This document shows positions 11,916 through 39,895 of a DNA stretch of 39,895 nucleotides, piece after piece. Every line of letters begins with the position of its first letter. The first letter of the stretch is position 1. A program made the position numbers and the translations under genes. The notes beneath the pieces are model-generated. The model worked only from the letters and a program-made list of their open reading frames with translations. It did no database searches and was not told where the DNA came from. Origin of the DNA: a virus (lineage: Duplodnaviria; Heunggongvirae; Uroviricota; Caudoviricetes); the IMG/VR virus record IMGVR_UViG_2519899564_000019; one strand, given 5' to 3'.

Positions 11916-11925
11916 GGAAAAAGGT

Positions 11926-12727: not shown

Positions 12728-12729
12728 CG

Positions 12730-20722: not shown

Positions 20723-20729
20723 ACGGTGA

Positions 20730-20748
20730 GCCGGGCTTACGGCCCGGC
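20730..20748 (+). other. GC-rich hairpin just downstream of the major capsid gene
   Basis: GCCGGGC-TTACG-GCCCGGC (7-bp perfect stem) 8 bp after the stop; no U-tract. Confidence 0.4.
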
Positions 20749-20765
20749 CCCTGCGGAGGGCAAAT

Positions 20766-22116: not shown

Positions 22117-22362
22117 ATGAAAACCATCTTTATCAAACCCGCGCCGGGACGCCTGATTCGTGATCCCGACACAATGCGCCCGCTGGCACAGGAGGGGGAG
22201 GAAAAGCCCTTTACGCCGTTCTGGTGTCGGCGTCTTGATGACGGCGATGTCATTCAGGCTGAAAAAGCCGCTGAAGAGGCTCCGGCTGTATCTGCGGATG
22301 CAACGACTGCGACAGAAAAACCGGTCGCCCAACCGGCATCCGATAAGGAGAAACCGCAATGA
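22117..22362 (+). CDS. small conserved tail-region protein (Mu gp38-like)
   Basis: 81 aa immediately upstream of the sheath gene. Confidence 0.5.
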   Translation: MKTIFIKPAPGRLIRDPDTMRPLAQEGEEKPFTPFWCRRLDDGDVIQAEKAAEEAPAVSADATTATEKPVAQPASDKEKPQ

Positions 22363-23861
22363 TTAATTTTGACGGGATCGGTAATGACCGCCGTATACCG
22401 CTGATTGAGGTTGAGTTTAATAACTCCATGGCTGTCACCGGCACTCCGGCACAGCGTCAGTGTGTGCTGCTGTTTGGTCAGGCGAGAATGAAAGAGAATG
22501 CCGTGGACGGTGCCGGTGTTCTGGATGTTCCGGTCAGGATCACCCGTGCGTCTCAGGCAACAGAACTCTGGGGGCGCGGCTCCATGATTGCCCTGATGGT
22601 GGCGGAATTTATCGCCATCAATCCTGATGCTGAACTGTATGCCATTGCTCAGGGGAACGGCACCGGACAGGCAACGGCTGCGGCCATGAATCTGACCGGA
22701 ACGGTCACCCGTGACGGGATTGTTTATGCCTGCGTGGGGGGGCGGCGTTATACACTCCCGGCACCAAAAGGTAAGAAAGGCAAAGAACTGACCGACGAGC
22801 TGGCCGCGCTGATCAATGCCGATCCTGACGCGCCCTTCACGGCCTCCTCTGGTGCAGGAAGTGGTGATAATGGCGCAGGTCTGAAAGGGTCTCTGGGGAT
22901 CACCGCCCGCTTTACCGGTGAATGCTCCGTTCATGATGTGCGCCTGAACTATTACGACGGGGAAGCAACCCCGGAAGGAATACAGGTCGCTATAGCCTAT
23001 CCGAAACAAAAAGCGGCTAACCCGGATATCACCCGAAGCGTGGCGGGTATGGGCGATCGCCAGTACAACTATGTCGTCATGCCCTATAAGGATGATGCAA
23101 ACCTGAAAATCATCAGTGATGAGCTTCTGAAACGCTGGGGACCGGCCAAAATGTCTGACGGCGTGCTGTGGCTGGCACATACCGGCACGTTTGGTGAGGT
23201 GCAGGCATTCGGGGCAAAACGCAATGATTTTCTGGCGACCTGCACATCCATTCCCAAAGCCCCTGAACCGGATTACCTCTGGGCAGCGGCGGTCTGTGCC
23301 ACCTGTGCACCCTCTCTGGGAGCAGATCCTGCGCGTCCGCTTCAGACGCTGGCGCTTCCGTCACGCATGGCCCCGGCTCCGGCCGATCGTCTGACGCGTG
23401 AAGAGCGTAACAGTCTGCTGTGGGGAGGGATTGCCACGGTCAGTGTGGCTGCCGGTGATGTGGTTCAGATCGAACGTCAGGTGACCATGTATCGCCAGAA
23501 CGTGTACGGCGAAAGTGATCCCAGCTATCTGGATGTGGAAACCATCTACACCCTCTCCTGGCTGCGTTATTCCCTGCGTACTTTTATCACACAACGTTTT
23601 CCGCGCCATAAACTGGCTGATGACGGGACGCCCGTTCGTGCCGGTCAGAATATCGTGACGCCGGAGATCATGAAGCTTCAGTTAATTTCGCTGGGTGAAG
23701 AGTGGGTGGAACTCGGGCTGGTCGAAAATCTGGACACCTTTAAAAAGAATCTGCTTGTGGAGCGTAATGCGTCAGATCGAAACCGTCTTGACGTGTTATG
23801 CACGCCGGATCTGGTTAACCAGTTCCGCTTCCTGGCAGCACAGATCCGTTTCATTTTGTGA
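22359..23861 (+). CDS. L: contractile tail sheath protein
   Basis: 500 aa followed by a tube-sized gene, chaperone and tape measure. Confidence 0.8.
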   Translation: MINFDGIGNDRRIPLIEVEFNNSMAVTGTPAQRQCVLLFGQARMKENAVDGAGVLDVPVRITRASQATELWGRGSMIALMVAEFIAINPDAELYAIAQGNGTGQATAAAMNLTGTVTRDGIVYACVGGRRYTLPAPKGKKGKELTDELAALINADPDAPFTASSGAGSGDNGAGLKGSLGITARFTGECSVHDVRLNYYDGEATPEGIQVAIAYPKQKAANPDITRSVAGMGDRQYNYVVMPYKDDANLKIISDELLKRWGPAKMSDGVLWLAHTGTFGEVQAFGAKRNDFLATCTSIPKAPEPDYLWAAAVCATCAPSLGADPARPLQTLALPSRMAPAPADRLTREERNSLLWGGIATVSVAAGDVVQIERQVTMYRQNVYGESDPSYLDVETIYTLSWLRYSLRTFITQRFPRHKLADDGTPVRAGQNIVTPEIMKLQLISLGEEWVELGLVENLDTFKKNLLVERNASDRNRLDVLCTPDLVNQFRFLAAQIRFIL

Positions 23862-23869
23862 GGTAAGGC

Positions 23870-24235
23870 ATGAGCGGAAAACAGTATCAGGGTACGGCCA
23901 CTATCCGTGTGAACGGTCAGGAATACGAGACGCTTGAGGGGGCTACATTTTCTCCGTCTGGTTTTGAACGTGAAGTGGTGAAAGGCGCGAAAGTCTATGG
24001 TTACCGCCAGAAACCACGTGAAGCGACGCTGGACTGCAAATTTCCGGCAGGCGGAGAAGGTTCACCAGCCGCCGATGAAATCAACAACTGGACTGCGGTC
24101 ACTATCGAGTTTGTGGCGGATACCGGCGAAGTCCACATGATGACGAAGGCCTGGAGCAGTGAACCGGCCTCGCTTGACGGTGGCGGGGAGATCTCCGTGA
24201 AGTTCGCCAGCGCCTCCAGTACCCGTGTTCAGTGA
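23870..24235 (+). CDS. M: tail tube protein
   Basis: 121 aa directly after the sheath gene. Confidence 0.75.
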   Translation: MSGKQYQGTATIRVNGQEYETLEGATFSPSGFEREVVKGAKVYGYRQKPREATLDCKFPAGGEGSPAADEINNWTAVTIEFVADTGEVHMMTKAWSSEPASLDGGGEISVKFASASSTRVQ

Positions 24236-24726
24236 TCAGGAAAAATAAAATGACCACACGTAAGAAAAAAACGGCAGTTTCCGAGGCAGCCGTGATGGAG
24301 GCAATCCGGGAAGCACTTGAGGGGGCTGATCCACGCACTGCCGGGCTGACAGAGCAACTGGCAAAGGGATATGTGGATCTGCTTGATGGTCTGCCGTTTG
24401 GTGAGACCCGTGAATATCGTGTCACGTTCCGGGAACTGACAGCGAAAGACAGTATTGACGCAGAAGCAGAAGCCGAGCGCGTGGTGGAGACAAACAATGG
24501 CCCGATGCTGATAGCGTCTCCGTCGTTACGCGGTGTTGCACTGCTGCGCCGTCAGATTGCCGCAGTGGGAGACATTGAAGGTCCGTTGTCACCCCGTCAG
24601 ATTGGACAGTTAAGCGAGCGCGATCTCTCCCGCCTGATGGCAGCGGTCAGCCTGCTGGATACCGCGCTTGCCGGAAAGCTGGCAGCTGACCGGGGGCGAT
24701 CAGGCGCAGTGTCGGGATCAGATTGA
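24232..24726 (+). CDS. tail assembly chaperone (possible frameshift extension to 24850)
   Basis: 164 aa between tube and tape measure; an overlapping +1-frame ORF (24668-24850) ends 2 bp before the tape measure start. Confidence 0.55.
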   Translation: MIRKNKMTTRKKKTAVSEAAVMEAIREALEGADPRTAGLTEQLAKGYVDLLDGLPFGETREYRVTFRELTAKDSIDAEAEAERVVETNNGPMLIASPSLRGVALLRRQIAAVGDIEGPLSPRQIGQLSERDLSRLMAAVSLLDTALAGKLAADRGRSGAVSGSD

Positions 24727-24852
24727 AGAAGCGGCAATTATCCTGGGGATGGTGACAAAAAGCGGTCCGGAATGGGCGCTTAACCTCCCCCTGTCGCAAC
24801 TTTACCGGCACTGCCGACAGACAGAAAAAATCATCAGAACGAAGCAGTAAGT

Positions 24853-26928
24853 ATGGCCCGAAATCTCAGAGCATCTCTGATAGTTGATTTGCTCGGCAAT
24901 ATCTCAGCCAAATCCCGCCAGTGGTCACAGGAGCTGGGGGCATTCTCACGCTCCGGCCAGGCGGGGCTGGGTGGCCTGGGAAATGCTGCCCGCCGTGCCG
25001 GGCAGGAAACAGATGTACTCGGAAGCAGGATGCAGCGCACGCTGGCCGGGGTGCGGGGCAGTATCCGCCATGTCACTTCTGATTTTGACCGTCTTCAGGG
25101 CAGTATTACCGGCACCATCGGGCGGATCAGCAATCTTTACGGAATGCTGGCCGGTGGTGCTGCTGTATATGGCTTTAACCGGGGATTTATTCGCCCGGCA
25201 GCGGAGATGGAAACCTATATGATTCGCCTGAACTCCCTTTACAAAGGGGATCGGGCGAAAACTGATGATGTCCGCAGGTGGGCAATACAGAATGCGAAGG
25301 AAACCACCTGGGGGCTGGCTGGCGTCATGCAGGAATATACGTCCAGTCTGGGCTTTGGTATGAGTGACAGGGAGGCCCGAAATTTTGTCACCATGCTTCA
25401 GGATCAGGGTGCCGTGGGCGGCTGGTCACTGTCCGATGCACAGGGGGCATCCCTGCAACTGAAACAGATGTATGCAAGAGGCAGTATTCAGGCGGCGGAT
25501 GCAAATATTCTTGCCACCTACGGCATTAATGCCTACCGCGTGCTGGCTGATCGTCTGGGTGTGGACCAGAAAGTGGTCAGAAAACTTGGTGAAAAAGGGC
25601 TGCTTGGGCCGGACAGTATTCGCCTGTTATTTCAGACGCTGGCGGAACAGGCCAGGGGAGCACAAAAGGACGCAATGAATTCCTGGAGTGGCCTGACGGC
25701 CATGATGGGTGACGTCTGGGACCAGTTTGCCCGGGATGTGATGGACAGTGGGCCATTTGAAAAACTGAAGGGTAATCTCAGGGGATTTCTTTCATGGGTT
25801 GACAGTGCCAAATCTGATGGCAGTTACCATTCCCTGGCGGAAAGCACGGCATCAGCCATGAACCAGGGCTTTGAGTATGCCCGTGATGCAGTGACAGGGT
25901 TTTATCAGGCGATCAGAAAGGTACGCGACACGCTTCAGGCTCTGCGGGATGCGGGCTATGGTGATGCGCTGGATCGCATTGGTCAGGGGGCACAGACCGC
26001 CGCGAAATACCTGCTGTACATGTATCTCGCCATCCGTGCCCTGAAAATGGCGCGGGCTGTCGGAACGGGGATTATACGTCCGGGTGCTGCATTGCTGGGA
26101 TACGGATTATCAGCGGCGGCCTTCCTGACCTCACCTTTCCGGCGCTCTCCTCCGGCCGGAACACCACCAGGCACATCTCAGGGACGAGGGCAACGTTTTA
26201 TAAACTTTCTTACCGGGGTAAATCCGGCAGCCGTTCAGCCAGTACTTGTAACAAACTGGCCCACAGGAGGACTGTCCGGCACCGGCGCGACCGATACATC
26301 CTCAGGCGGACGTCAGGGGCGGGGCCGCAGGAAACGCGGACCGGGGCGCGGAAGACCGGTCACGCCTCCCCTGCCACCGTCCCCAGTGCCACCGTCTCCC
26401 TCTTCTGGTGGGGCAGGGTTCTGGGGGCGCATGATGGGGCGCGCCGGTGGGTTACTTTCGTCTGTCGGTAGCCGCATGGGGCTGGGGCGTTTCTCCGGCT
26501 TTTTCCGCAGTGCCGGTGGACTGGCCGGCCGGCTGGGTGGAGGTGCCCTGTGGGCTGGCGCGATGGCAGCCCCGGTTCTGCTGGATGGCAGCGCCAGTGC
26601 CACAGACAAGGGAGAAGCGGTCGGCTCTCTTGCAGGCAGTATTGCCGGTGGTGCGCTGGGGGCGGCAGCCGGACCTGTGGGGATTGCCATTGGTTCTACG
26701 GTGGGCAGCTATCTCGGTAACTATCTGGGGGGATGGCTGACTGAAGCCTGGCAGAAATTACGGGGCAGTGATGATGAAAGCAGTGGACAGGCGGTACAAA
26801 AAGCCTCTGCCCGTGTGGAGCTGGTTGCCCCGGAAGGGTGGCAGGCTCGCAGTATTGATATTGATGACACGTCCGGTCACGGACTGGATGTGAATGTCTG
26901 GAACGGAGGGAATTATGGCCTCTGGTGA
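24853..26928 (+). CDS. tail tape measure protein
   Basis: 691 aa; long helical N-terminal part and a Gly/Pro/Arg-rich low-complexity region (about 26150-26700). Confidence 0.8.
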   Translation: MARNLRASLIVDLLGNISAKSRQWSQELGAFSRSGQAGLGGLGNAARRAGQETDVLGSRMQRTLAGVRGSIRHVTSDFDRLQGSITGTIGRISNLYGMLAGGAAVYGFNRGFIRPAAEMETYMIRLNSLYKGDRAKTDDVRRWAIQNAKETTWGLAGVMQEYTSSLGFGMSDREARNFVTMLQDQGAVGGWSLSDAQGASLQLKQMYARGSIQAADANILATYGINAYRVLADRLGVDQKVVRKLGEKGLLGPDSIRLLFQTLAEQARGAQKDAMNSWSGLTAMMGDVWDQFARDVMDSGPFEKLKGNLRGFLSWVDSAKSDGSYHSLAESTASAMNQGFEYARDAVTGFYQAIRKVRDTLQALRDAGYGDALDRIGQGAQTAAKYLLYMYLAIRALKMARAVGTGIIRPGAALLGYGLSAAAFLTSPFRRSPPAGTPPGTSQGRGQRFINFLTGVNPAAVQPVLVTNWPTGGLSGTGATDTSSGGRQGRGRRKRGPGRGRPVTPPLPPSPVPPSPSSGGAGFWGRMMGRAGGLLSSVGSRMGLGRFSGFFRSAGGLAGRLGGGALWAGAMAAPVLLDGSASATDKGEAVGSLAGSIAGGALGAAAGPVGIAIGSTVGSYLGNYLGGWLTEAWQKLRGSDDESSGQAVQKASARVELVAPEGWQARSIDIDDTSGHGLDVNVWNGGNYGLW

Positions 26929-28264
26929 CGGTCGTGGTGCGTTCCGTGGTGTGCCGTTCCTCGTCTGGCGTGAGCAGCGCGAACGTGGCGGGCGAAACAT
27001 TGTCCGTCGGGAATATCCGTTACGGGAAACCGGTGGTGCAGACGATCTGGGACCTAAACTGGCTGAATTTACGTTCAGTGTACTTGTGATGGGGGATGAT
27101 GTTCAGACACAGCGAAATCGTCTGCGTGATGCCCTTCGTGCTCCCGGTGCCGGGGAGCTGCTTCACCCGGATTACGGCACGTTAAATGTGCTGATAAACA
27201 GCTTTGAAAGTCGTTATAACGCTGCTGAACAGGGCGTGGTTGAGTTCACCATTAATGTCACGCCGGTAAGTGATGATACCGCACCTGCTGTCACACAGGA
27301 CACGGCCGCCATTCTGGAGCAGAAGAGTACCACCGCGCTCGGGAAGGTTTTTGAAACCCTGGAAGCGGGCTGGACGGTGATTTCTGACGGAATGCACGAT
27401 GTCCAGGCAATGACCGAAACCATCAGCGATAAGGTGTCCGCCCTGGAAAATGCCGTTTCCGGCATGGGGATTGTACAGGATATCAGTGCCTTTACTGCCA
27501 CGTTCACGGCGCTGAAAGGGAATGCCACGGCATTACTGACAGCACCTTCCCGCATGGCCTCATCTTTTGCGGGGCTTTTCAGTGCCCTGATCACCCTGCC
27601 ATCGCTGCCGTCACTGTCTTCAGGAGGCCTGAATACCCGGCCCGGTGGCAGTATCGGCCGGACGACATCCGCCGTCTCTCAGGGAATGCCGCAACTGTAC
27701 AGGACATTATCTTCCCTGCGTTACGTGCTGGATGAGCAGGATAATCCGCAGACTCTCATCGGTCTGACACCGGCAGCACAAAAGAATATTCGTCTGATAC
27801 GGGCGGTAATGCAGAGTGCTGCCGTGGTGGCCCAGGCACAGACCGTGGGAAAACTGCTGGATCAGGTTCTCAGTCAGGAAACCCTGCCGGACAGTGACGC
27901 AGCCCACCGTACCTGGCCTGTCTGGCTGGAAAGTTCAGTTGATCTTCAGCGCATTAACCGTGACTTAAGCGAAGCGCTCGAACGGCAGGTGATGACACTG
28001 TCCGGGCAGGGGTATACCGCCACGGCGCTGACGCTTCGTGATGCCAGACTGGCACTGACAGAGGATCTGAATACACGGGGAGTTCAGCTACCCGGTGCAA
28101 CAGTAGTGACTGTACGTACCACCGAGCCTGCACTGGTGACCCTGTACCGTGCCACCGGGAACAGTACCGGCTGGCAACGTTTTGTGCGCCGTAACGGTAT
28201 TGTTGATCCGCTGTTCATTCCCGGAGGCCATTCAGTGGAGGTGATTAGTGAGCAGCAGGGTTGA
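26915..28264 (+). CDS. N: Mu N-like protein (DNA circularisation / tail protein)
   Basis: Position after the tape measure; ATG 26915 preceded by GGAGGG (track ORF begins 26894). Confidence 0.65.
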   Translation: MASGDGRGAFRGVPFLVWREQRERGGRNIVRREYPLRETGGADDLGPKLAEFTFSVLVMGDDVQTQRNRLRDALRAPGAGELLHPDYGTLNVLINSFESRYNAAEQGVVEFTINVTPVSDDTAPAVTQDTAAILEQKSTTALGKVFETLEAGWTVISDGMHDVQAMTETISDKVSALENAVSGMGIVQDISAFTATFTALKGNATALLTAPSRMASSFAGLFSALITLPSLPSLSSGGLNTRPGGSIGRTTSAVSQGMPQLYRTLSSLRYVLDEQDNPQTLIGLTPAAQKNIRLIRAVMQSAAVVAQAQTVGKLLDQVLSQETLPDSDAAHRTWPVWLESSVDLQRINRDLSEALERQVMTLSGQGYTATALTLRDARLALTEDLNTRGVQLPGATVVTVRTTEPALVTLYRATGNSTGWQRFVRRNGIVDPLFIPGGHSVEVISEQQG

Positions 28265-29372
28265 ACTGTATCTGGGCGGTGAGATTTTTTCCGGCTGGCT
28301 GACGGTGAGTGTTCGTCGCTCTCTTGAACATCTGGCGGGCTCCTTTGAACTGGGGGTAATGATGCCCGGTGTACGCCTTCCGTCATCCGTCCGTGCCGGT
28401 CAGTCTCTGGAATTGCGCATTGACGGTCAGCCTGTGATCACTGGCTGGCTGGATCAGGTCCGGCAGCGCATCAGCGCCACGCGTTTTCAGATCACGCTCA
28501 GCGGACGGGATAAAACCGGTGACCTGGTGGACTGTTCAGCCATTCATCCGGGCAGCCAGTGGAGGAACCGCACGCTGGAGCACATTGCTTCAGATTTGTG
28601 TGCTCCGTTCGGGGTCACGGTGCGCTGGCAGGTAAATGATGCAACGGCAGCCCGGCCCTTTTCCACCTTCACACTGGAAAACTCAGAAACCGTGGCAGAT
28701 GCGCTGACACGGGCCGCGAGACACAGAGGCGTCCTGGTAACCAGTAATGCCGCCGGTGAACTGGTTTTCACTCAGGCCGGCAGTCAGCGTGGCGACACGC
28801 TGACGCTGGGCGAAAATCTGCTGGATTTGGATCACAACGTGGATCACCGTCTGCGCCACAGTGAATACCGTGTACGGGGGCACGGGCGTGGTGGTGGTCA
28901 TGCCGGGGATGCACTGACAGCCGGAACGCTGGCCGCACCCGTTGGTACGGTGACAGACAGTGCCATCCACCGTTACAGACCGAAAATTGTGCTGGCGGAT
29001 CATGCTGTTGATGCAGACGGTGCACGCCAGAGGGCTGTCCGGGAAATGCGCCGGGCGGTTGCCCGCTCTGTGCGCCTGACAGCCACCGTGCGGCACTGGT
29101 TTCGGGAGAACGGCCAGTTGTGGGATATCAACCTGCTGACGGCTGTCACGGCTCCCCGCACCGGAGTGGAAGAGCGTGATCTTCTTGTCTGTCAGGTGGA
29201 GTTTTCGCTGGATGCAAATCACGGCGAAACCACCCGTCTGATTCTGGCACCCCGTGACGGCTTTATTGTTCCGGCAGAGCCGGGAAACAGCGGAAGCGGA
29301 AATGCGGGTGACGTGGACGCCTTCGTGCGGGCACAGATGAAAAAACAGGGGATTAAATTCAATGATGAATGA
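28248..29372 (+). CDS. P: baseplate hub protein (Mu P / gp44-like)
   Basis: 374 aa in conserved baseplate position. Confidence 0.65.
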   Translation: MSSRVELYLGGEIFSGWLTVSVRRSLEHLAGSFELGVMMPGVRLPSSVRAGQSLELRIDGQPVITGWLDQVRQRISATRFQITLSGRDKTGDLVDCSAIHPGSQWRNRTLEHIASDLCAPFGVTVRWQVNDATAARPFSTFTLENSETVADALTRAARHRGVLVTSNAAGELVFTQAGSQRGDTLTLGENLLDLDHNVDHRLRHSEYRVRGHGRGGGHAGDALTAGTLAAPVGTVTDSAIHRYRPKIVLADHAVDADGARQRAVREMRRAVARSVRLTATVRHWFRENGQLWDINLLTAVTAPRTGVEERDLLVCQVEFSLDANHGETTRLILAPRDGFIVPAEPGNSGSGNAGDVDAFVRAQMKKQGIKFNDE

Positions 29373-29976
29373 CGAAGTCATCAGCCGCCTTCTGGCCCCC
29401 GTAATGCGGGGTGTTCGTCTGCTGTTCGGGCGTGGTGTACTGACCGGCACAACGGACACGCTGAAAATCCAGAATGTGCAAATCACCGGTATGGATGGTG
29501 AAACCTTTGATGACGTTGAACGCCCCCAGCAGTACGGGCAAATCAGCGTCCCCCTGCCTGGTGCGGAAGTTTTTCTGGCCTGTGCTGGCGGACAACGGGA
29601 TCAGGCCGTGGTGCTTGTGGTGGAAGACCGCCGCAGTCGCCCGACCGGACTTACCGCCGGAGATACCGGCGTGTATCACCATGAGGGGCACCGTATACGT
29701 CTGACAAAGAACGGCCGGATCATTGTGACCTGTAAGACGCTGGAGATTTACGCCGATGAAGGTGTTCAGGTGGATACACCGGAGGCTCACTTTACCGGTA
29801 ATGTCACAGTGGATAAGAACCTGCATGTCAAAGGCAATGTGTCCATTGACGGCACCGGAAGATCACAGGGGACGTTCACGATGTCCGAAGCGGTTATTGC
29901 CGGGATCACCTATTCAGGTCATGTGCATCACGATAACGGTGAAGGCAGCAAAACGGGAGGACCAGAGAATGGCTGA
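29362..29976 (+). CDS. baseplate spike / assembly protein V-like (Mu gp45-like)
   Basis: 204 aa with a beta-rich C-terminal part (GNVTVDKNLHVKGNVSIDG); position. Confidence 0.65.
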   Translation: MMNDEVISRLLAPVMRGVRLLFGRGVLTGTTDTLKIQNVQITGMDGETFDDVERPQQYGQISVPLPGAEVFLACAGGQRDQAVVLVVEDRRSRPTGLTAGDTGVYHHEGHRIRLTKNGRIIVTCKTLEIYADEGVQVDTPEAHFTGNVTVDKNLHVKGNVSIDGTGRSQGTFTMSEAVIAGITYSGHVHHDNGEGSKTGGPENG

Positions 29977-30406
29977 TATTGCTGTCGTCTGGGATCAGGG
30001 TTGCGGTTCCCTGCAACTGAACGGCGCAGATCTTCTGACGGATAACAGCCTGCTGACTGCGGTCATTATTTCACTGTTTACGGACAGGCGGGCGCTGGAT
30101 TCCGATGAAATCCCTGACGGCACCCGTGACCGTCGGGGATGGTGGGGAGACAGTTTCCGGGAGCGCCCCGTTGGCTCCCGTCTCTGGCTGTTAAGCCGTG
30201 AAAAGACGCTGTCCTCCGTGGTCAGCCGTGCACAGGCCTATGCTGATGAAGCGCTGGCGTGGCTGCATAAAAGCGGTGCTGCCACATCCGTGGTATGTCA
30301 TGCCATGCGTGTGGGGCATGCTCGCCTTTCGCTTTCCGTGAAAATCACCCTGCCGGACGGAAGCAGACATCCGATGATTTTTTATGCTGATATGAAGGGG
30401 GAATGA
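29969..30406 (+). CDS. baseplate wedge protein (Mu gp46-like)
   Basis: Internal ATG 29969 of track ORF 29756-30406 overlaps the upstream stop; begins MADIAVVWDQG. Confidence 0.6.
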   Translation: MADIAVVWDQGCGSLQLNGADLLTDNSLLTAVIISLFTDRRALDSDEIPDGTRDRRGWWGDSFRERPVGSRLWLLSREKTLSSVVSRAQAYADEALAWLHKSGAATSVVCHAMRVGHARLSLSVKITLPDGSRHPMIFYADMKGE

Positions 30407-31488
30407 TGCCTTATCAGCCCTTACCACTGGCGCAACTGATCACACAGACACAACAGGATATCAGCCAGCGCCTGCCCGGTTCGCAGCCGGGCGTGAATGA
30501 AACCACCCTGAATGCCATTGCGTATGCACTCGCGGGTCTGTCAGCACAGGAGCATGAACATCTGGCCTGGATCTCCCGGCAGATAATTCCGACAGAAGCT
30601 GATGAAGCCGAACTCCTGAAACACTGCGCATTCTGGGGTGTCATCCGTAAACCGGCTTCCCGCGCTGACGGACCGGTACAACTGATGCTGACCACGGATG
30701 CAGGGATCACGGAAGGCGTACTCCTTCAGCGAAGCGATGGTGTTGTGTACCGCATCACCGGCTCTGCGACCGGAAAAGCCGGAACACTGAATGTTAATGT
30801 GGAGGCGGAAAGTGCGGGGCGCGCTGGAAATACCCCGACCGGAACCCGCCTGTCCTTTATCACGCCACAGGCGGGCATCAACCAGACAGCCACGGTCACC
30901 GGCACGGGACTCACCGGTGGTGCGGATGTGGAAACGGTGCCGGAGTTGCTGTCCAGGCTGGTATTCCGGGTACAGAACCCGCCATCAGGGGGAACACAGT
31001 ATGATTTTGAACGCTGGGCACGGGAAGTACCGGGCGTGACGCGGGCATGGTGTAAGCCTGAATGGCCTGAGGCGGGTAGTGTTGGTGTGACTTTTGTTCA
31101 GGATAATAACCCTGACATTTTCCCCGGAGAAGGTGATGTGAAGCGGGTGGCGGATTATATCCGCAGTCATGATGATCCGGCGACGGGCCAGCCCGTTGGT
31201 CAGCCACTTGGGCCGACAATCAGCGTGTTTAAGCTGACCAATAAGCCGGTGGCGTTTGAGATCAGGATTGTACCCAAAACGCCGGAAAATCAGGCTGCCG
31301 TAAAACAGGCATTAACGGACCTGCTTTATAACGAATCGCGGCCGGGTGGACTTGTATTGCCTTCATCATTCTGGCGGGCTGTTGCAGGGGTGAAAGGACT
31401 GGAGGATTTTGAAGTTCGCAGCCCGCTGAAGTCCGTGATGGCCGGAGATACAGAGTTGCTGACCGTGGGGGAAATCACATGGCTGTAA
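30403..31488 (+). CDS. baseplate J-like protein (Mu gp47-like)
   Basis: 361 aa; baseplate J-like size and position. Confidence 0.7.
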   Translation: MMPYQPLPLAQLITQTQQDISQRLPGSQPGVNETTLNAIAYALAGLSAQEHEHLAWISRQIIPTEADEAELLKHCAFWGVIRKPASRADGPVQLMLTTDAGITEGVLLQRSDGVVYRITGSATGKAGTLNVNVEAESAGRAGNTPTGTRLSFITPQAGINQTATVTGTGLTGGADVETVPELLSRLVFRVQNPPSGGTQYDFERWAREVPGVTRAWCKPEWPEAGSVGVTFVQDNNPDIFPGEGDVKRVADYIRSHDDPATGQPVGQPLGPTISVFKLTNKPVAFEIRIVPKTPENQAAVKQALTDLLYNESRPGGLVLPSSFWRAVAGVKGLEDFEVRSPLKSVMAGDTELLTVGEITWL

Positions 31489-32039
31489 CCCTGACCCCGC
31501 ATCAGCGTGCCCTGTTGCAGTTGCTGCCTGACGGGCTGGCATGGGATAAGCGGCCGTCATCCGTTCTTGCGGCTTTGTGCCTGGGCCTCAGTCATTCCAC
31601 GGAGCGTGTTTCCTGGACCGGTAACCAGATGCTGGCAGAACGTTTTCCTGATTCATCCCGTCTGCTGCTGGAAGACTGGGAGCGTTATCTGGGGTTACCG
31701 GAATGTGATATGACCGGCGCAACCATTCAGGAGCGTCAGCGTTATGCCGGGAATAAATACCGGATGAAACCCTCTCTTAACCGTGAATTTTATATCCGGT
31801 TTGCGGCAGAGTTTGGTTATGAAATAGATATTCAGCCATCACCGGATTCACAGTGGGTCAGTATTGTCACGATTAACAGTGAAACCGGCTACCGGAATAT
31901 GAATGTGCTGGATGATATTCTCACCCCGCTGCGTATTTATGAGGGTGGTGCGCTGGAATGTATTCTGAACCGTTATAAGCCTGCATGGCAGACGTTTATT
32001 TACGTGTATGCAAACAGCCATGAAGAGGAGACTATTTAA
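31479..32039 (+). CDS. tail protein (Mu gp48-like)
   Basis: 186 aa immediately upstream of the tail fibre gene. Confidence 0.6.
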   Translation: MAVTLTPHQRALLQLLPDGLAWDKRPSSVLAALCLGLSHSTERVSWTGNQMLAERFPDSSRLLLEDWERYLGLPECDMTGATIQERQRYAGNKYRMKPSLNREFYIRFAAEFGYEIDIQPSPDSQWVSIVTINSETGYRNMNVLDDILTPLRIYEGGALECILNRYKPAWQTFIYVYANSHEEETI

Positions 32040-32950
32040 TGTTTCATGTTGATAATAATTCCGGCGTGGCGAATATGCCTGCGCTGGCACCGGCGCAGAG
32101 TAATACCACCACCTGGTTTACCGAAGGTGACGGACAAAAAGGTATCAGCTGGATTGGTCAGGACTGGCTGAATATTCTCCAGGCCGAACTGCTGAATATT
32201 CTGGCTGAAGCCAGTATTCAGCCGGATAAGGCGCAGTTAAACCAGCTTACGCTGTCCATTAAAGCCATTATCGCTGCGAATGCCTTTTCCCGGAAAAACA
32301 ACCTGAAAGAAATTGCTGATGCCGGTGCGGAAGCCCAGCGTCTTGCCCGTGGTTATCTTGGTCTTGGGGCGCTTGCCACAAAAAACAGTCTTGGTCCCGG
32401 TGACGTTAATGCTCTGGCGAAGGATCAGAACCTTGCCGACCTGGAGAATGCGGGAACCGCCCGTAATAATCTGGATGTTTACAGCAAAAGCGAAGGTGAT
32501 AACCGTTACCTGCGCAGGGAGCAGAACGGCGCAGACATTCCGGATAAAGGCGCTTTTATCGATAACGTCGGTTTACGGGAAACGGTAAATAAGGCTGCTG
32601 ATGCCCTGCCATCGGGTGGAACCGCCGTGGCAGCAAACAGACTCGCCACCCCAAGAAATATTAATGGCGTTCCTTTTGACGGAACGCAGGATATCAACAT
32701 CACGTCAGGAATGACGCAGTCAACCGCAGATGGCCGGTATGTACAGAATGTTCAGCTTGGAGCACAGAGCTATCATTCACCCGGAGGCAATGAAATATCA
32801 TGGAATTACAGCGCACCTTCCGGTTGTATGCTTTCCGGTATTAACGTGCAGGAAACCGGCTCCCGGTCTGCGGACAATATCGGTGGGGTCTATTATCGCC
32901 CGGTTCAGATTTATATTAATAATGCCTGGAGAACGGTAAGTTCAGTGTAA
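32039..32950 (+). CDS. S: tail fibre protein S: constant part 32039-32568 joined to variable cassette Sv 32569-32950 in the present orientation
   Basis: 303 aa; the C-terminal third downstream of gixL is paralogous to the inverted cassette on the minus strand (DGTQDINITSGM shared). Confidence 0.8.
   Translation: MFHVDNNSGVANMPALAPAQSNTTTWFTEGDGQKGISWIGQDWLNILQAELLNILAEASIQPDKAQLNQLTLSIKAIIAANAFSRKNNLKEIADAGAEAQRLARGYLGLGALATKNSLGPGDVNALAKDQNLADLENAGTARNNLDVYSKSEGDNRYLRREQNGADIPDKGAFIDNVGLRETVNKAADALPSGGTAVAANRLATPRNINGVPFDGTQDINITSGMTQSTADGRYVQNVQLGAQSYHSPGGNEISWNYSAPSGCMLSGINVQETGSRSADNIGGVYYRPVQIYINNAWRTVSSV
32556..32581. repeat. gixL: 26-bp Gin/Hin-type recombination site inside S
   Basis: TTATCGATAACG-TC-GGTTTACGGGAA; its reverse complement matches gixR at the inner half-site and centre (TCCCGTAAACC GA), and both flanks of homology end here. 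Confidence 0.7.
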
Positions 32951-32960
32951 ACCACAGAAA

Positions 32961-32979
32961 AGGGTGCTGAATGCACCCT
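32961..32979. terminator. Hairpin between convergent Sv and tail fibre assembly genes
   Basis: AGGGTGC-TGAAT-GCACCCT (7-bp perfect stem) in the 34-bp gap between convergent genes. Confidence 0.5.
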
Positions 32980-32984
32980 CTGAA

Positions 32985-33506
32985 TTATTCCGGTTTTTCC
33001 GGCCAGGGAATCGCCTGGTAATGCCCCTCACTGGCAATATCATTAAAGTGCATTTCTTTAAGCTGTCGGATATACGCCATCCAGCGCGTCAGCTGTAATT
33101 TATTTTCATCGCTAATCATGTCCAGTTTTAATTCTGTTTTCCAGTCATCCACGGTTTCGTTGGCTTCCTGGAGCAGCGATGAGCGACGCTTTTCAGCAAC
33201 CGTCTTCCAGTTTACCGGCACCTTTGATATCAGGCCATCAGAAAACTGCCAGTTACCGTCAATATTCACACCTTCCGGCAGTTCGTCCACTTCAACAACA
33301 GTAAAACCTGCCGGATATAAAGCAGAGACATCTTCAGCAACAGAGCAGATAATACCCGTTACAGGCGAAATACAGAGTTTGTATTTCTTTGTGAAAAGCG
33401 GGATAGATTCATAAAAATCCCTTCCGTCCTCACTCTGGAAATACTGAACATCCTCACCATAGGGTTTGTCTTTCGGGTAATATCGTTTGACATTAATCAG
33501 TTGCAT
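32985..33506 (-). CDS. tail fibre assembly protein (U'-type chaperone)
   Basis: Minus-strand ORF 32985-33557; start placed at the internal Met (MQLINVKRYYP...) at 33506. Tfa-like pattern with conserved C-terminus (WQA..PWPEKPE). Confidence 0.7.
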   Translation of the reverse strand: MQLINVKRYYPKDKPYGEDVQYFQSEDGRDFYESIPLFTKKYKLCISPVTGIICSVAEDVSALYPAGFTVVEVDELPEGVNIDGNWQFSDGLISKVPVNWKTVAEKRRSSLLQEANETVDDWKTELKLDMISDENKLQLTRWMAYIRQLKEMHFNDIASEGHYQAIPWPEKPE

Positions 33507-33627
33507 AAACATCACCATGTAAATCAATGATAAAAACAGGAATAATACTATCGCCATATACAGGCAATGCTTGTCTGAAATAACGCATATTTCAGATGCT
33601 GGCTGCTGTGTGCTATGCCCCCGTTAA

Positions 33628-33994
33628 TTAAATACTTGCAGCGGATACCCAATGCCCATTAATACAATATTGTATCTGTCTGTAATAAACACGGTCATCA
33701 CCACCACGCATTTCCCAGTCTCCGTCAGTCTTAAAACCGGTAATCACATTTCCTGATGACAGGGAGTAATTATATTCCAGTCCGCCGCTTAATGCCTGCG
33801 CTCCCAGTCTTACCCCTGTAACATAACGCTGATTGGCCGTTGATTCCGGCATTCCTGACGTAATGTTTATATCCTGCGTGCCGTCAAAGGCGACACCATT
33901 GATTCTGCGGGCATTTGCCAGCCTGCTTGCTGCAACAGCCGTACCGTTTGATGGCAGGGCATTCGCGGCCCTGTTTACCGTATCCCGTAAACCG
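33628..33994 (-). other. S'v: promoterless alternative tail fibre C-terminal cassette (expressed only after inversion)
   Basis: Minus-strand frame is open from gixR (33994) to stop at 33628 and translates to GLRDTVNRAANALPSNGTAVAASRLANARRINGVAFDGTQDINITSGMPESTANQRY..., paralogous to the Sv portion of S. Confidence 0.7.
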
Positions 33995-34007
33995 AGGTTT
34001 CAGGGAT
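33982..34007. repeat. gixR: 26-bp Gin/Hin-type recombination site upstream of gin
   Basis: ATCCCGTAAACC-GA-GGTTTCAGGGAT, an imperfect palindrome resembling the gix/hix family as recalled. Confidence 0.7.
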
Positions 34008-34061
34008 GCCGTATATCTGCTTTAAAAGGCTTTTCCACCTCTTTTTAAGGAAGGTAAATAC

Positions 34062-34622
34062 ATGCTGATTGGCTATATACGCGTATCAACAAATGACCAG
34101 AACACCGGTTTACAAAGAAATGCGCTGGAATGTGCAGGATGTGAGCAGATTTTTGAAGACAAAATGAGTGGTAAAACGACACAGCGGCCGGGACTGAAGC
34201 GGGCACTGAAGAAACTAAAACCCGGTGACACGCTGATGGTCTGGAAACTGGACAGGCTGGGGCGCAGTATGCGCCACCTTGTTGCGCTGACAGATGAATT
34301 ACAGCAACAGGGGATAAATTTTCGTAGTCTTACTGACAACATTGATACGTCAACCCCCATGGGGCGCTTCTTTTTTCACATAATGGGTGCGCTGGCAGAA
34401 ATGGAGCGTGAATTAATTGTCGAACGGACACGGGCTGGTCTTGCAGCAGCCCGTGAAAGGGGACGAACCGGCGGCAGACCCCGCCGTCTCACGCAGGAAC
34501 AATACGAGCAGGTCGGGCGTTTACTGGCCGGGGGTGTCAGTCGAAGACAGGTGGCACTTATTTTTGATATCGGTCTTTCAACCCTTTATCGTTATTATCC
34601 TGCGAGCGTTTCGGAAAAATAA
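34062..34622 (+). CDS. gin: Gin/Hin/Pin-family serine DNA invertase
   Basis: 186 aa; N-terminal catalytic motif GYIRVSTNDQ, resolvase-like core and C-terminal HTH; adjacent to the invertible segment. Confidence 0.9.
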   Translation: MLIGYIRVSTNDQNTGLQRNALECAGCEQIFEDKMSGKTTQRPGLKRALKKLKPGDTLMVWKLDRLGRSMRHLVALTDELQQQGINFRSLTDNIDTSTPMGRFFFHIMGALAEMERELIVERTRAGLAAARERGRTGGRPRRLTQEQYEQVGRLLAGGVSRRQVALIFDIGLSTLYRYYPASVSEK

Positions 34623-34721
34623 GACGCTCTCTTTGTTGGGCCTTTACTGAATTAACGCAAAATGGCGTTTATCGGTCTGTGGATATGATAATTCAGTTTA
34701 TTCAGGAACAGGCTGATTATT

Positions 34722-36770
34722 ATGACGTCCAAATGGGTTCAACTATCATCAATGCCCGGAAACTTTACTGTTAAAGTTTCCGGTGGTACAGCGGCATTTC
34801 TTGAGGCTCCCTTTCCTCCGGCCGAAACAAAAGGAGGAATGACATTTGCTGACTGTCTCATCAGTTTTAATACACAGGATTGCCTGTGGGTAAGGCCAGT
34901 ATCCGGTGATCCGAACGTGGAAATTACCGGAGCGGGTATTGGTGCTGTCATTCCGTTAAGTGCTGATGTTGCCGGTACTACTGAACCGTCAGACTGGGAT
35001 AATGCAGAAACACATACCCGTCCGGCAGGAAATGAAACGGCTTCCAGCTCCCCTTCCTGGTATTACGTGATTGTTATAGCCGGCCAGTCCAATGCTTCAT
35101 CTTATGGTGAAGGGTTGCCCCTTCCGGATTCTTATGATCGTCCTGATCCACGTATTATGCAGCTGGCACGCAGGAATACACAAACCCCCGGAGGTATTCC
35201 CTGCAAATACAATGAAATCATTCCAGCAGATCACTGCCTTCATGATGTTCAGAATATGAGTCTGCTGAACCATCCAAAAGCAGACCTGAAAAAAGGGCAG
35301 TATGGTTGTGTGGGGCAGGGACTTCATATTGCGAAAAAAGTATTACCGGTGATTCCTGCTGATGCCGGGATTTTACTGGTTCCCTGTGCCCGTGGCGGCT
35401 CTGCTTTTACAACCGGCGCAGTTGGCTCATTCGATCCGGCAAGTGGTGCAGCCGAGGCGTCACTACGCTGGGGAGTGGATACCCCACTGTATCAGGATCT
35501 TGTCAGTCGAACTAAAGCGGCACTTGAGGCGAATCCAAAGAATGTGCTGTTATCTGTCGTATGGATTCAGGGGGAAGGAGACCTTAAAGCGACCCCGGCC
35601 CAGCATGGTGCCCAGTTTACTGCGATGGTGAAAAAATTCCGTGCGGATCTTGGTGCTTTCTCCGGTCAGTGTATTGGTGGTTCATCAGACAGTGTGCCGT
35701 GGTTATGTGGTGACACAACCTATGACTGGAAAGAGAAGAACCCGGCGGCATATGAAACCATTTATAGCGGATATAAAAACCGGGCTTCCGAGAACATTCA
35801 CTTTGTTCCACTGATGCACGATGAGTTCGGTAATAAAACCGCGACCAACCTGCCGGAGCACGACCCGGATATCGCTTCTGCCGGGTATTATGGTGCGGAA
35901 TCACGGGGAGATGGCAACTGGACAACAGCATCCAGGGCAACCCATTTTAGCTCCTGGGCGCGCCGTTTTCTGGTCTCAGATCGTTTTGCATCAGCAATTC
36001 TTAAATATGCAGGTCTGACCTCTGCATTTATTGCCGGTGTGGCCCCTGATGGTGAAGCCCTGCCTCAGCCCGCGCCGGGTGGGAAACCGGAAGCGCCGAC
36101 AGGTAGTCAGCCAGGAGGCAGTGAGTCCCCCCATCCGACATCCCCGTCACTCCGTACGCTGCTTTCACTTAAAGCATCAGCAGGAGAAGCCCCGGCTCAG
36201 GGCTGGAAAATTACAGATGGTACAATCCAGCTGACGGACGAAGGTAAAGCGTTGACCGTATCCAAACAAAGCGGAAAAACCTGGACGCTTACCCATGGAA
36301 CTGATGCAGCCGGTGAACTTCTGAAGCATGGTGGTCAGTTGACCTGTAAATTCCGTCTGTCAGGTGAAGTAAAAGAAGGCCAGTTTGCTCTGGGTATTTA
36401 CCTCCACACCGATACGGTCCCGGAAGGTGTAACCATGAGTGGTACAGGCACACCGTTCCTGATGGCGTATTATCTCCAGACAACAGGCGGCCAGTTAAAT
36501 CTGATGCACCATAAAACAGGGGGGAATACGAAACTGGGATCATTTGGAGCCTACAATAACCAGTGGCATACACTTGTCCTGAAGTTTACGGCGGGAAGTG
36601 CCCAGGTAACGCCTGTGCTGGATGGCACTCCGGGCCAGGCATTCCAGATGGTGAAAGATGCACTTTCCCCTGCCAAAGATACGCTGACACTGACAGATGT
36701 CACCAAAGGGGCAACTTATGGCGTGTCTTTTGAGAGCGTTGTCCTTGAGGTTAATACCCCTGCGGCATAA
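34722..36770 (+). CDS. cargo protein (682 aa) with a GQSN-type esterase motif; possible carbohydrate O-acetylesterase of the kind carried by prophages
   Basis: Motif IVIAGQSNASSYGEG resembles the catalytic block of SGNH/sialate-O-acetylesterase-like hydrolases; Gly/Thr-rich beta-looking C-terminal part; no signal peptide; inserted between gin and com where Mu has none. Family assignment from motif only. Confidence 0.5.
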   Translation: MTSKWVQLSSMPGNFTVKVSGGTAAFLEAPFPPAETKGGMTFADCLISFNTQDCLWVRPVSGDPNVEITGAGIGAVIPLSADVAGTTEPSDWDNAETHTRPAGNETASSSPSWYYVIVIAGQSNASSYGEGLPLPDSYDRPDPRIMQLARRNTQTPGGIPCKYNEIIPADHCLHDVQNMSLLNHPKADLKKGQYGCVGQGLHIAKKVLPVIPADAGILLVPCARGGSAFTTGAVGSFDPASGAAEASLRWGVDTPLYQDLVSRTKAALEANPKNVLLSVVWIQGEGDLKATPAQHGAQFTAMVKKFRADLGAFSGQCIGGSSDSVPWLCGDTTYDWKEKNPAAYETIYSGYKNRASENIHFVPLMHDEFGNKTATNLPEHDPDIASAGYYGAESRGDGNWTTASRATHFSSWARRFLVSDRFASAILKYAGLTSAFIAGVAPDGEALPQPAPGGKPEAPTGSQPGGSESPHPTSPSLRTLLSLKASAGEAPAQGWKITDGTIQLTDEGKALTVSKQSGKTWTLTHGTDAAGELLKHGGQLTCKFRLSGEVKEGQFALGIYLHTDTVPEGVTMSGTGTPFLMAYYLQTTGGQLNLMHHKTGGNTKLGSFGAYNNQWHTLVLKFTAGSAQVTPVLDGTPGQAFQMVKDALSPAKDTLTLTDVTKGATYGVSFESVVLEVNTPAA

Positions 36771-36827
36771 TCGTGACGGCCGGGAATTTATCCGGCTGTA
36801 ACATCAGTTAATAAGAGTGAGGCTTAT

Positions 36828-37007
36828 ATGACATATATAAACGTCTGCCTGCTGTATTTCTGCACGGTGGTTTGTTGTCTGTTGCTTGTCAGCGGTGGTT
36901 ATAAAATTATTCGCAATTATTTTCGAAATAAAATTGATGCAGCTGCCGAGGAAAAGATAAAAAGCGGTGCTGTAATGCCGCAGCCGAAAGACTCCGGTCA
37001 GATTTAA
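36828..37007 (+). CDS. possible small membrane protein (59 aa), not in the ORF track
   Basis: ATG 36828 preceded by TAAGAGTGAGG; N-terminal hydrophobic Cys-rich segment VCLLYFCTVVCCLLLV, then a charged tail. Confidence 0.3.
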   Translation: MTYINVCLLYFCTVVCCLLLVSGGYKIIRNYFRNKIDAAAEEKIKSGAVMPQPKDSGQI

Positions 37008-37042
37008 TTTTTTGTGAACCAGAAAAGGAAAGGAGAATATTC

Positions 37043-37288
37043 ATGCCAGAGATTAAAGGCACGGTTACTGAAGAGCTTGTCAAACAGGCACTTTATTCTG
37101 AAGAAGTGAACCGCGTGCTGAAGGCGCAGGTTCGCAAGGATTTTGAGGCACAAATCGACGCATATGTTGATGAAGTGCTGGCCCGAATGGTTGGTCGTTC
37201 TCCGGCTGAAAACAGCACGGAAAATGAGCCTCAACCCGTAGAGCAACCAGAGCCGGTTCAACCCGGAACTGACGGTACTATGATGTAA
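37043..37288 (+). CDS. hypothetical small protein (81 aa) with acidic Pro/Glu-rich C-terminus
   Basis: ATG after AAAGGAAAGGAG; followed by an 8-bp-stem hairpin at 37298-37317. Confidence 0.4.
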   Translation: MPEIKGTVTEELVKQALYSEEVNRVLKAQVRKDFEAQIDAYVDEVLARMVGRSPAENSTENEPQPVEQPEPVQPGTDGTMM

Positions 37289-37297
37289 CAATACCGA

Positions 37298-37317
37298 CCG
37301 GCAGGTTTCCCTGCCGG
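37298..37317. terminator. Hairpin after the 81-aa gene (possible terminator)
   Basis: CCGGCAGG-TTTC-CCTGCCGG perfect 8-bp stem; the downstream tract is only partly T-rich. Confidence 0.4.
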
Positions 37318-37639
37318 GTGAATTTGTTAATGCACGTTTTGTGTATTTTCCCTCCGGGGAGAACAGGCAGGACATATCAGCATCCTGAAACAGGAAGCAT
37401 TTTTTGGTTTGTATGTCTTGCCATTTTGAGATCGAGAACGGCGATAGATGAGCTGTAAGGGAGTCTTACAGGCAGGGCAAACAGGCTCTTTATCCATGAT
37501 AAAGATCTCCTTTTTATGCATCTCTGCTTTACAGGAGACCGGGGAATATCATAGGATACGCCACGAGCTCGAAGTAAAGCATTGATGCAAAATTGTCTAA
37601 ATCGGCCCAGAATAGTTCGCGCTATCTGGGTCGCCCTTT

Positions 37640-37906
37640 ATGTATGTAGTATCCCATTGATTTGAAACATACTACATATACGCGCGATCCTACCGACACT
37701 GTATAAAAAGTCAATAAAATGATCATTTTATGATCGTTTTCACACGCTAACTCTTCGTTTTTCTTGAGTAAATAATCACCTCCCTGAATCATTGTTGATG
37801 ACTTTTCAATCTATTTGTTGTATCAATTAAACAAATCGAATCGATCGTTTTTGTCGATCGATTGCATGAGAAAGGCATCAACAACAAAGCAGGAGGTTAT
37901 GCGGCC
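37640..37906. promoter_or_regulatory. AT-rich com-mom upstream regulatory region with clustered GATC sites
   Basis: GATC at 37686, 37721, 37732, 37843 and 37856 (two closely spaced pairs, the last two inside CGATCG palindromes); perfect 10-bp inverted repeat TATGTAGTAT / ATACTACATA at 37642-37678; AGGAGG at 37891-37896 before com. Confidence 0.5.
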
Positions 37907-38107
37907 ATGTATCGAAACATACGGTGCCGACACTGCAATAAGCTACTGGCACGGGCCAGTTTCAGTTATCTGGAAGTAAAATGTCCGCGCTGTAAAACCC
38001 TCAATCAAATCACATCTCCGAGCGCCACAGAGCACCCCACATACACAAGGAAATCCTGTCGTGGGGAACAGAAAGCAAGTCACATCCCGTATCATCAGCA
38101 CGCCTGA
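37907..38107 (+). CDS. com: Com-like zinc-finger translational activator of mom
   Basis: ATG 37907 after [16 protein letters not shown]...CPRCK zinc-finger pattern parallel to Mu Com; 3' end overlaps the mom start. Confidence 0.75.
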
Positions 38108-38798
38108 ACTTATTCGCTATAACGACAATATCGTTGGTTATGGCTCCCGTGAGTTGCGGGTTGAGACAATAAGTTGCTGGCTGGCCAGACTGGTCATCGT
38201 CAATAAACATTACAGCCACCGTTTCGTAAATAACTCCTACCTTCATCTGGGTATATTTTCAGAACGGGAACTTGTTGGCGTAATGCAATGGGGTTACGCC
38301 CTTAACCCAAACAGTGGTGCACGCGTCGTAACGGGTACGCAGAACCGAGAATATATGGAGCTTAACCGGCTATGGATGCATGACTGTATGCCGAGAAACT
38401 CCGAATCAAGGGCAATCAGTTACGCGCTCAAGCTAATCAGGCAGCTTTATCCGCAGGTACAGTGGGTTCAGTCGTTTGCAGATGAGCGTTGTGGCTGTCT
38501 TGGTGTCGTGTATCAGGCAAGCAATTTTGATTATGTAGGCAGCCATGAATCAACATTCTATGAACTTGATGGCGAGTGGTATCACGAGATTTGCAGGAGT
38601 GCCATTAAACGAGGCGGACAACGAGGTGAACATCTGAGGGCTAATATCGACAGAGCCAGTGTGCATAAGTTCCGACAGTTTCGTTACATCCGGTTTCTGA
38701 ACAAGAGGGCCAGAAAACGCCTCAACACAAAGCTATTCAAAGTCCAGCCTTACCCAAAACCACAAACAGTTAAAACTGGTTTGAAAGAGAGTGAATGA
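38061..38798 (+). CDS. mom: Mom DNA-modification protein (adenine modification, anti-restriction)
   Basis: 245 aa; close match to Mu Mom as recalled ([71 protein letters not shown]); overlaps com. Confidence 0.9.
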
Positions 38799-38834
38799 GC
38801 GCTTAAAAACTCATTCTAAAACTCAAAAGAAAAG

Positions 38835-38907
38835 CGCCGATTTAGTATCAAATAAGTTGCGTATCGGCGTTTTTCAGCGGTATCAAATGAAATGCAAATC
38901 GGTATCA
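38835..38907. repeat. Prophage right end: three direct GTATCAAA-containing repeats (candidate transposase binding sites) and terminal CA
   Basis: GTATCAAA at 38845-38852, 38880-38887 and 38902-38909 (exact end uncertain to about 20 bp); hairpin CGCCGAT...ATCGGCG followed by TTTTT at 38835-38875. Confidence 0.55.
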
Positions 38908-39895
38908 AAAAAATCGCCGCGCTATAATAGAGATCACTAATTTCAAAAGCACCAGGCGATACATAAGTTTGGTAAATGGTGTAACCATTTTGCTTAATCG
39001 TTATCTGGGCATTGCTTTTGGCGATACCACGCACCACAGGCGCAAACCCTTTCAGGCTGTCTGGCAGCATGTTGTCATCTGACGCCAGCTGCACACCACG
39101 AAAGCTGACACTATCGAAAAAATCGCCTGCAGTATAATCATCACCTACGGTCAGTTCGCCTTTTAGTGGAATAACCGCCCGCTGCAAATAGCTGCTGAGA
39201 TTCTTCCATTCTGCGGTTTGGCCACTACTGCGACTCCATGTTGAATTGTTGCGCAATCTCCATGGGCCTAAATTAACGCCACTGTTTAAATTCAGAAAAT
39301 AGCTGTCGCCAGAATCACTGTCTGCGCTGCTATGAATACTGTTAGCCCCGCTAAACGAATATCCCAGTAATAGCGCGTTGATCCCTTCATCCCAACGTTC
39401 AGGGGGGACATAACCACGGGCATTACTTTTGATGGCGATTTGCGGTACTGAAATTTCCAGACGGAGTTTATTCACATTAAACGTTACGCTGGCATCCGGA
39501 ATAATCTCCGCCAATGGCACACACGCTTGTTTGTCCAGTTGTTTAAAAGCCGGAAACGCATCAGTATTAACACCCATTGCATCCAGGCTTTCAGTCGTCA
39601 AACAGGCGGCAATCCCCTTCTCTGGCGTTATCTCAACAAAATTGACGTTGCGCGTATCTACAATTGTCTGATTCAGAACAATATCGACACGATAAACCCC
39701 TGGCGTTATTTTTTGTCCTTTTTCGAAACGAGACAAATCGGCCACCATTGAGGGATCATCTTTGAAAAAAGCAGGATCGAACCAGGTTTCAGCTTGTGCA
39801 TTGAACGCTGCCGACACAAACACCACCAGCCCACCAATAAACGATGGCACTCCACCAGAGCTTAACAGGCTGTGTTGTCGATGAGTTCTATACAT
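38908..39895 (-). pseudogene. Fimbrial usher (FimD/PapC family) N-terminal fragment, truncated by the prophage insertion
   Basis: Minus-strand ORF begins at the window edge with a signal peptide and an usher N-terminus (ARGYVPPERWDEGINA, FRGVQLASDDNMLPDS, ITIKQNGYTIYQTYVSPGAFEISDLY); after ...YSAA the frame runs about 32 codons into prophage sequence to a stop at 38816; ushers are normally about 800-900 aa. Confidence 0.75.

Follow-up and report, generated by a model that had tools for sequence, protein, structure and literature searches.

The right end of an Sp18-type Mu-like prophage in the fimbrial usher gene elfC of Escherichia coli

Sp18-type prophages and the element in the window

The prophages Sp18 of Escherichia coli O157:H7 Sakai, located in sorM, and Phi804-3 of strain FRIK804 share the gene order and the com-mom right arm of the element studied here, and their right-end sequences agree with its own down to the final base. 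Each of them disrupts a chromosomal gene, at a position peculiar to its strain. According to published work, Sp18 is a Mu-like prophage that seems intact (PMC2669165), and prophages of its type can transpose, with insertion sites that differ from strain to strain (PMC2669165, PMC7430833). Like Mu, the Sp18-type element encodes a MuA-type transposase, a MuB-type ATPase and Gam, possesses an invertible segment of the Gin type and carries com/mom near its right end. It further resembles Mu in that it inserts almost at random, has end-binding motifs in several copies and starts with TG on the left. Unlike Mu, it has a right terminus of TA instead of CA and a target duplication of 4 bp instead of 5 bp. 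The host gene concerned, elfC (ycbS), encodes the usher of the ELF (Ycb) fimbriae, a member of the FimD/PapC family. Ycb fimbriae are typical of the phylogroups A, B1, D and E, and operons of the chaperone-usher type are often disrupted in E. coli (PMC3559732).

The DNA analysed here (the window, 39,895 nucleotides) starts exactly at the stop codon of the phage repressor and ends exactly at the start codon of elfC, so that it was apparently cut on gene boundaries. Pfam matches and comparison with relatives assign positions 1..38926 (plus strand) to the body of an Sp18-type Mu-like prophage, of which about 305 bp at the left end lie outside the window. A repressor with a Mu DNA-binding domain is encoded at 1-519 on the minus strand. 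It is followed on the plus strand by a MuA-type transposase (963-3047, with the domains HTH_Tnp_Mu_1 and Mu-transpos_C found within 939-3047) and a MuB-type ATPase (3118-4050, AAA_22 and Phage-MuB_C). Pfam further identified Gam (5403-5933) and a Gin-type invertase (34062-34622). The right arm carries, on the plus strand, com, the translational activator of mom (37907..38107, Zn_ribbon_Com, E 3e-12, with the start codon set according to annotated homologues), and the DNA modification gene mom (38061..38798, Pfam Mom, E 8.5e-77), which is the last gene of the prophage. Compared with Sp18 of Sakai, the element lies in elfC and not in sorM, and its repressor allele and left-end variant are different.

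Two features near the invertase gene were observed besides. A 179-nt inverted repeat (32564-32742 and 33821-33999, 75% complementary) brackets about 1.1 kb beside the Gin-type resolvase gene (34062-34622), and the region 32564-33999 looks like a G-segment-like invertible switch of tail fibres. Between the invertase and com/mom, an ORF of 682 aa (34722-36770, plus strand) combines a SASA (sialate O-acetylesterase-type) domain with DUF6645 and may represent an accessory or receptor-modifying gene that has no counterpart in Mu.

Prophages in other E. coli share 99.3-99.8% identity with the region 14000-38926. In 213 of 5,426 complete E. coli genomes this region is covered to at least 80%, and some genomes carry up to 8 matching places of this phage family. 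A megablast search of sequenced phages outside the Sp18 type yielded marginal DNA similarity only, none of it extensive. At the protein level, the transposase shares 77% identity with its counterpart in Yersinia Mu-like phages (vB_YpM_5), 44% with that of Mannheimia phage 3927AP2, 43.5% with that of SuMu and about 30% with that of D3112, and Mu itself was not among the 30 best transposase matches. Judged from these identities, the term Mu-like is to be understood for this element as a statement on architecture and not on close kinship.

Among the loci fetched, prophages that encode a repressor or transposase identical to that of the window have 25 different left flanks, and 9 different right flanks were obtained. 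The element thus occupies many unrelated chromosomal sites and moves by transposition, not by site-specific integration. Closely related Mu-like phages (about 95% identity) are also annotated inside Stx2c- and Stx1a-converting prophages (LC727881.1 and LC727895.1), which shows that the Sp18-type family transposes into other prophages too.

The right junction and the chimeric usher reading frame

Downstream of the mom stop codon, the prophage continues on the plus strand through 38799..38926 and terminates with ...ATCGCCGCGCTATA-3' at position 38926. This terminus was located by means of a 96-nt query spanning the junction, which matched the right ends of relatives at unrelated loci, namely sorM (Sakai, Sp18), dcuC, flgK, comR, another site in elfC, and others. 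An alignment of six genomes was invariant up to window position 38926 (...AAAAAAATCGCCGCGCTATA) and unrelated from 38927 onward, and the right junctions at all nine distinct insertion sites, that of the window included, end in TATA. The 19 bases 38908-38926 (AAAAAATCGCCGCGCTATA) accompany the element to nine unrelated insertion sites; therefore they are part of the mobile element, and the junction between prophage and host is 38926|38927. The preliminary description of this DNA had set the right end of the prophage at about 38,907 with a terminal CA, as in a typical transposon end. The nine right junctions place the true end 19 bp further out and show a terminal TA, whereas the CA in question (38906-38907) lies inside the terminal GGTATCAAAA repeat. 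As the 19 bases bear a loose likeness to the intact gene, we also considered that they might be a divergent stretch of elfC; this was rejected, since they recur beside the prophage at other, unrelated loci.

The CA mentioned above falls in the third of three direct repeats of RGTATCAAAW (38844-38853, 38879-38888 and 38901-38910, plus strand). This motif occurs four times in the window, where 0.32 matches would be expected, and three of these matches are clustered at 38844..38910. Because the left ends of relatives also contain the inverse motif TTTGATAC(C/T), the repeats presumably represent binding sites of the transposase. With TGTA... and ...TATA taken as the ends, the TTTGATACC motif begins at nucleotide 18 from both termini, a symmetry that independently supports the terminus at 38926.

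The junction is crossed by an ORF of 359 aa on the minus strand (38816-39895), with its ATG at 39895 and the stop codon TAG at 38816-38818. The preliminary description had recognized this ORF as the N-terminal part of a fimbrial usher, and the domain searches bear this out. PapC_N (PF13954) matched residues 39-182 with an E-value of 1e-49, and Usher (PF00577) matched residues 201-325 (E 1e-60) over profile positions 2-126 of 549 only. In comparison with solved structures, residues 37-325 of the ORF aligned to residues 2-293 of the 833 of FimD, and structures of the FimD N-terminal domain were matched as well. The Pfam result and the FimD alignment agree that the translocation (Usher) domain is incomplete, which marks the ORF as a gene fragment. 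No Pfam match to PapC_C or other C-terminal usher domains was obtained in the 359-aa ORF, and a tblastn search with intact ElfC found nothing of this protein beyond residue 327 encoded anywhere in the window.

The usher was identified as ElfC by sequence identity together with its operon neighbourhood, which comprises a PapD-type chaperone, a fimbrial subunit and ssuE. By megablast, positions 38926-39895 are 100% identical at the nucleotide level to elfC in many E. coli, including strain E2865, and a match to elfC with at least 80% query coverage was found in 3,985 of 5,426 complete E. coli genomes. In E2865, intact elfC lies between elfD and elfG and encodes 866 aa. Comparison with this uninterrupted allele, which had been proposed at the outset, gave a clear result: the DNA is identical up to the junction, and residues 1-323 of the ORF are identical to intact ElfC, ending with ...AFEISDLY. 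Thereafter the ORF continues with YSAAIFLIPICISFDTAEKRRYATYLILNRRFSFEF (YSAAIFL...FEF), whereas intact ElfC reads STSSSGDLLVEI... at this point. Host DNA (38927..39895, minus strand) accordingly comprises codons 1-323 of the 866 of elfC, as found by nucleotide identity, protein identity, Pfam and PDB matches, and encodes the signal peptide, the PapC_N domain and about the first quarter of the barrel domain, together 37% of the ElfC protein.

The ORF is divided at the junction into exactly 323 host codons (38927-39895) and 36 prophage codons, YSAAIFLIPICISFDTAEKRRYATYLILNRRFSFEF, plus the TAG stop (38816..38926, minus strand), and the divergence from ElfC sets in at the same place. The preliminary description had let the usher extend to about residue 327, followed by some 32 foreign codons. 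While the usher assignment itself holds, its boundary has to be moved to residue 323 and the number of foreign codons raised to 36; the figure of 327 is explained by the local tblastn alignment, which runs on over four extra residues by chance similarity. That the frame continues through prophage-end sequence to a stop at 38816, as had been stated, was corroborated, because the tail-encoding DNA 38816-38926 also forms the prophage right end at eight further insertion sites. Likewise, the statement that a Mu-like prophage truncates the usher with its right end agrees with the 866 aa of intact ElfC and the divergence of the ORF after residue 323.

One could imagine that elfC is naturally short in this lineage and that the prophage merely adjoins it. 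The existence of the 359-aa ORF is the one point in favour of this. Against it stand the 866-aa length of the intact gene with DNA that is fully identical up to the junction, the origin of the last 36 codons from prophage DNA found at unrelated loci, and the coverage of the Usher profile at positions 2-126 of 549 only. The alignment of right ends and the comparison with intact ElfC rule this out, and we give a naturally short allele practically no probability. The 359-aa ORF is therefore the product of a chimeric pseudogene and not a short usher.

Target duplications and the history of the insertion

Eight related prophages in which both junctions could be read were used to determine the target duplication. 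The duplicated bases are TTAG in elfC of FORC_069, TAAA in sorM of Sakai, ATTA in dcuC of FRIK2455, ATCA in flgK of JE86-ST05, ATAG in comR of ERL06-2497, CGAG in hyfF of N8B7-2, TTTT at yahO-yahN of MDP9-27, and TGGA in a ydjJ-like gene of 2014C-3307. Each of the eight is a simple insertion whose flanks are contiguous, and a direct repeat of exactly 4 bp abuts TGTA... and ...TATA. The uninterrupted sites carry a single copy, as seen in elfC (window and E2865) and in flgK and comR of K-12. A target duplication of 5 bp had been expected for the insertion in elfC; the duplication measures 4 bp in each of these eight relatives, which are located at sites other than that of the window. A 5-bp duplication in which the terminal A of TATA or the first T of TGTA is derived from the target was also considered; it fails in most of the eight cases, the fifth base agreeing in only three of them on the left side or four on the right side. 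The left end begins with TG in 24 of the 25 distinct sites and with TA in FORC_069. On the right, the element ends with TA at all 9 distinct sites. In FORC_069, the left terminus reads TATAACC in place of TGTAACC, the sole variant of this kind among the 25 distinct left ends.

The preserved MuA/MuB-type machinery, together with a 4-bp target stagger and a TA-3' right terminus, might represent a natural and so far undescribed variant of the Mu-type transpososome geometry, a reading that we propose tentatively and with somewhat less than even confidence. That the 4-bp duplication and the TA terminus are a lineage difference from Mu is plausible on comparative grounds, since the transposase is far from MuA. 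The literature searched, with the older Sakai literature lying outside this search, contained no stated duplication length or termini for Sp18-type phages.

With the relatives as a guide, the events at elfC can be reconstructed with good confidence. An Sp18-type Mu-like phage very probably transposed into the chromosomal elfC gene after codon 323. On the minus strand, codons 1-323 of elfC now read into the right end of the prophage, gain 36 unrelated codons and stop at 38816. Intact elfC reads ...gacgtggaATAGagatc at the target site. Because the relatives show 4-bp duplications, ATAG is predicted as the duplicated sequence of this insertion, with its right copy at 38927..38930, as derived from all eight relatives and from intact elfC, and its left copy beyond the window.

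Neither the right terminal sequence in inverse orientation, used as a query, nor a search for inverted repeats revealed a left end of the prophage in the window. In relatives whose repressor is identical, the left terminus TGTAACCAGGTAAATCATTTGATACC is reached after a further 305 bp. The left junction is accordingly predicted as ...CGACGACGTGGAATAG|TGTAACCAGG..., or with longer flanks as ...GTGGAATAG|TGTAACCAGG and ...CGCTCGACGACGTGGAATAG|TGTAACCAGGTAAATCATTTGATACC-3' (plus strand of the window). Codons 324-866 of elfC, followed by elfG, would then lie directly beyond the left end with the ATAG duplication, an arrangement that we infer from the relatives.

The right junction of this insertion was absent from the 5,426 complete E. 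coli genomes and from three contig collections (genome_contigs, viral_contigs and metagenome_contigs). The predicted left junction, searched with a flexible gap of 0-10 nt, was likewise absent from these three collections, a result that is uninformative, given that the right junction is missing from them too. When the exact repressor and transposase proteins were looked up, only other insertion sites were retrieved. A second copy of the chimeric ORF was found only in contig 172 of the Logan assembly of SRR497731, an independent short-read assembly that is 100% identical over window positions 28816-39895 and ends inside the prophage. In the other direction, this contig runs more than 6 kb onward through elfD (PapD-type chaperone), an elfA-like subunit gene and ssuEADCB. 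The right junction is therefore chromosomal and reproducible, because this contig has the same junction and continues into collinear chromosome.

This observation bears on the question whether the junction could be a chimeric assembly artefact, or packaged virion DNA with host DNA at its right end. In virions of the Mu type, headful packaging leaves a variable stretch of host DNA at the right end, and the window is devoid of the left end, both of which would fit such an origin. However, the assembly of SRR497731 from raw reads has the identical junction, and the junction lies exactly at the conserved terminus of the family, as real transposition predicts. More than 6 kb of collinear chromosome exceeds the host DNA load of a virion, and heterogeneous virion flanks would not assemble. 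We regard an artefact or virion origin as very improbable.

A rearrangement subsequent to the insertion has to be weighed as well. In this case, an adjacent deletion or inversion, or recombination between Mu-like copies, would have deleted the 3' part of elfC or moved it elsewhere. With up to 8 matching places of the phage family per E. coli genome, substrates for recombination are available, and the left junction of the elfC insertion is unseen. On the other hand, all eight relatives are simple insertions with contiguous flanks, and the right junction bears no sign of rearrangement, the host flank being collinear with the normal elfD-elfA-ssu neighbourhood. A rearranged locus is thus unlikely. 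Very probably, an Sp18-type phage was inserted in elfC by transposition, with the junction at 38926|38927, and elfC is split by an element of about 39 kb. As regards the split in particular, our confidence is equally high, and it comes from strong inference and not from demonstration.

Consequences for the ELF/Ycb fimbriae and comparison with other elfC alleles

The first 323 residues encoded in the window are the same as those of ElfC, and the elfD, elfA and ssuE neighbourhood is conserved, whereas the window contains neither the C-terminal domains of intact ElfC nor the greater part of its barrel. The product would keep only the signal peptide, the N-terminal domain for docking of chaperone-subunit complexes and the first part of the barrel. 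The usher is indispensable for assembly by the chaperone-usher route in the FimD/PapC family. With 323 of its 866 codons left, the usher gene cannot be functional; lacking the C-terminal domains and the larger part of the barrel, its product would be unable to assemble fimbriae. The insertion of about 39 kb would in addition separate elfG, ycbU, ycbV and the genes that follow from the promoter of the operon. With a truncated usher and downstream genes cut off from their promoter, ELF/Ycb fimbriae are most likely not made in this strain. The ycb operon is reportedly cryptic in K-12 under laboratory conditions, and for this reason the phenotypic cost of the loss of elfC may be small.

Both partners, the Mu-like prophage of the Sp18 family and the chromosomal gene, as well as the phenomenon of a gene being knocked out by such a prophage, are already known. 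The elfC allele described here is not contained in the set of complete genomes, yet it is no new kind of thing, but a routine insertional pseudogene. Its value lies mainly in annotation, where the 359-aa ORF should be recorded as a chimeric pseudogene and the boundary between prophage and host as 38926|38927. ELF/Ycb is moreover an adhesin that is counted in screens for virulence genes in STEC and other E. coli. The short duplication and the TA end are of interest to specialists in transposition, and they matter whenever prophage borders are set by TG...CA and 5-bp repeats.

The insertion adds one site to the many at which this still-mobile phage family disrupts chromosomal genes. In FORC_069, elfC is disrupted by the same phage family, and the two halves of the gene are annotated as pseudogene fragments. 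There the element lies at about codon 185 (TTAG), compared with codon 323 here, which identifies the two insertions as independent events. The elfC gene has thus been struck independently at least two times by the Sp18-type family, and also by IS1, which interrupts it instead in DX6, LR883965 and other strains. The insertion of the phage family at about codon 185 of elfC was also observed in FORC_029, FORC_043 and NCCP15648, and FORC_069 belongs to a group of related Korean isolates that share it.
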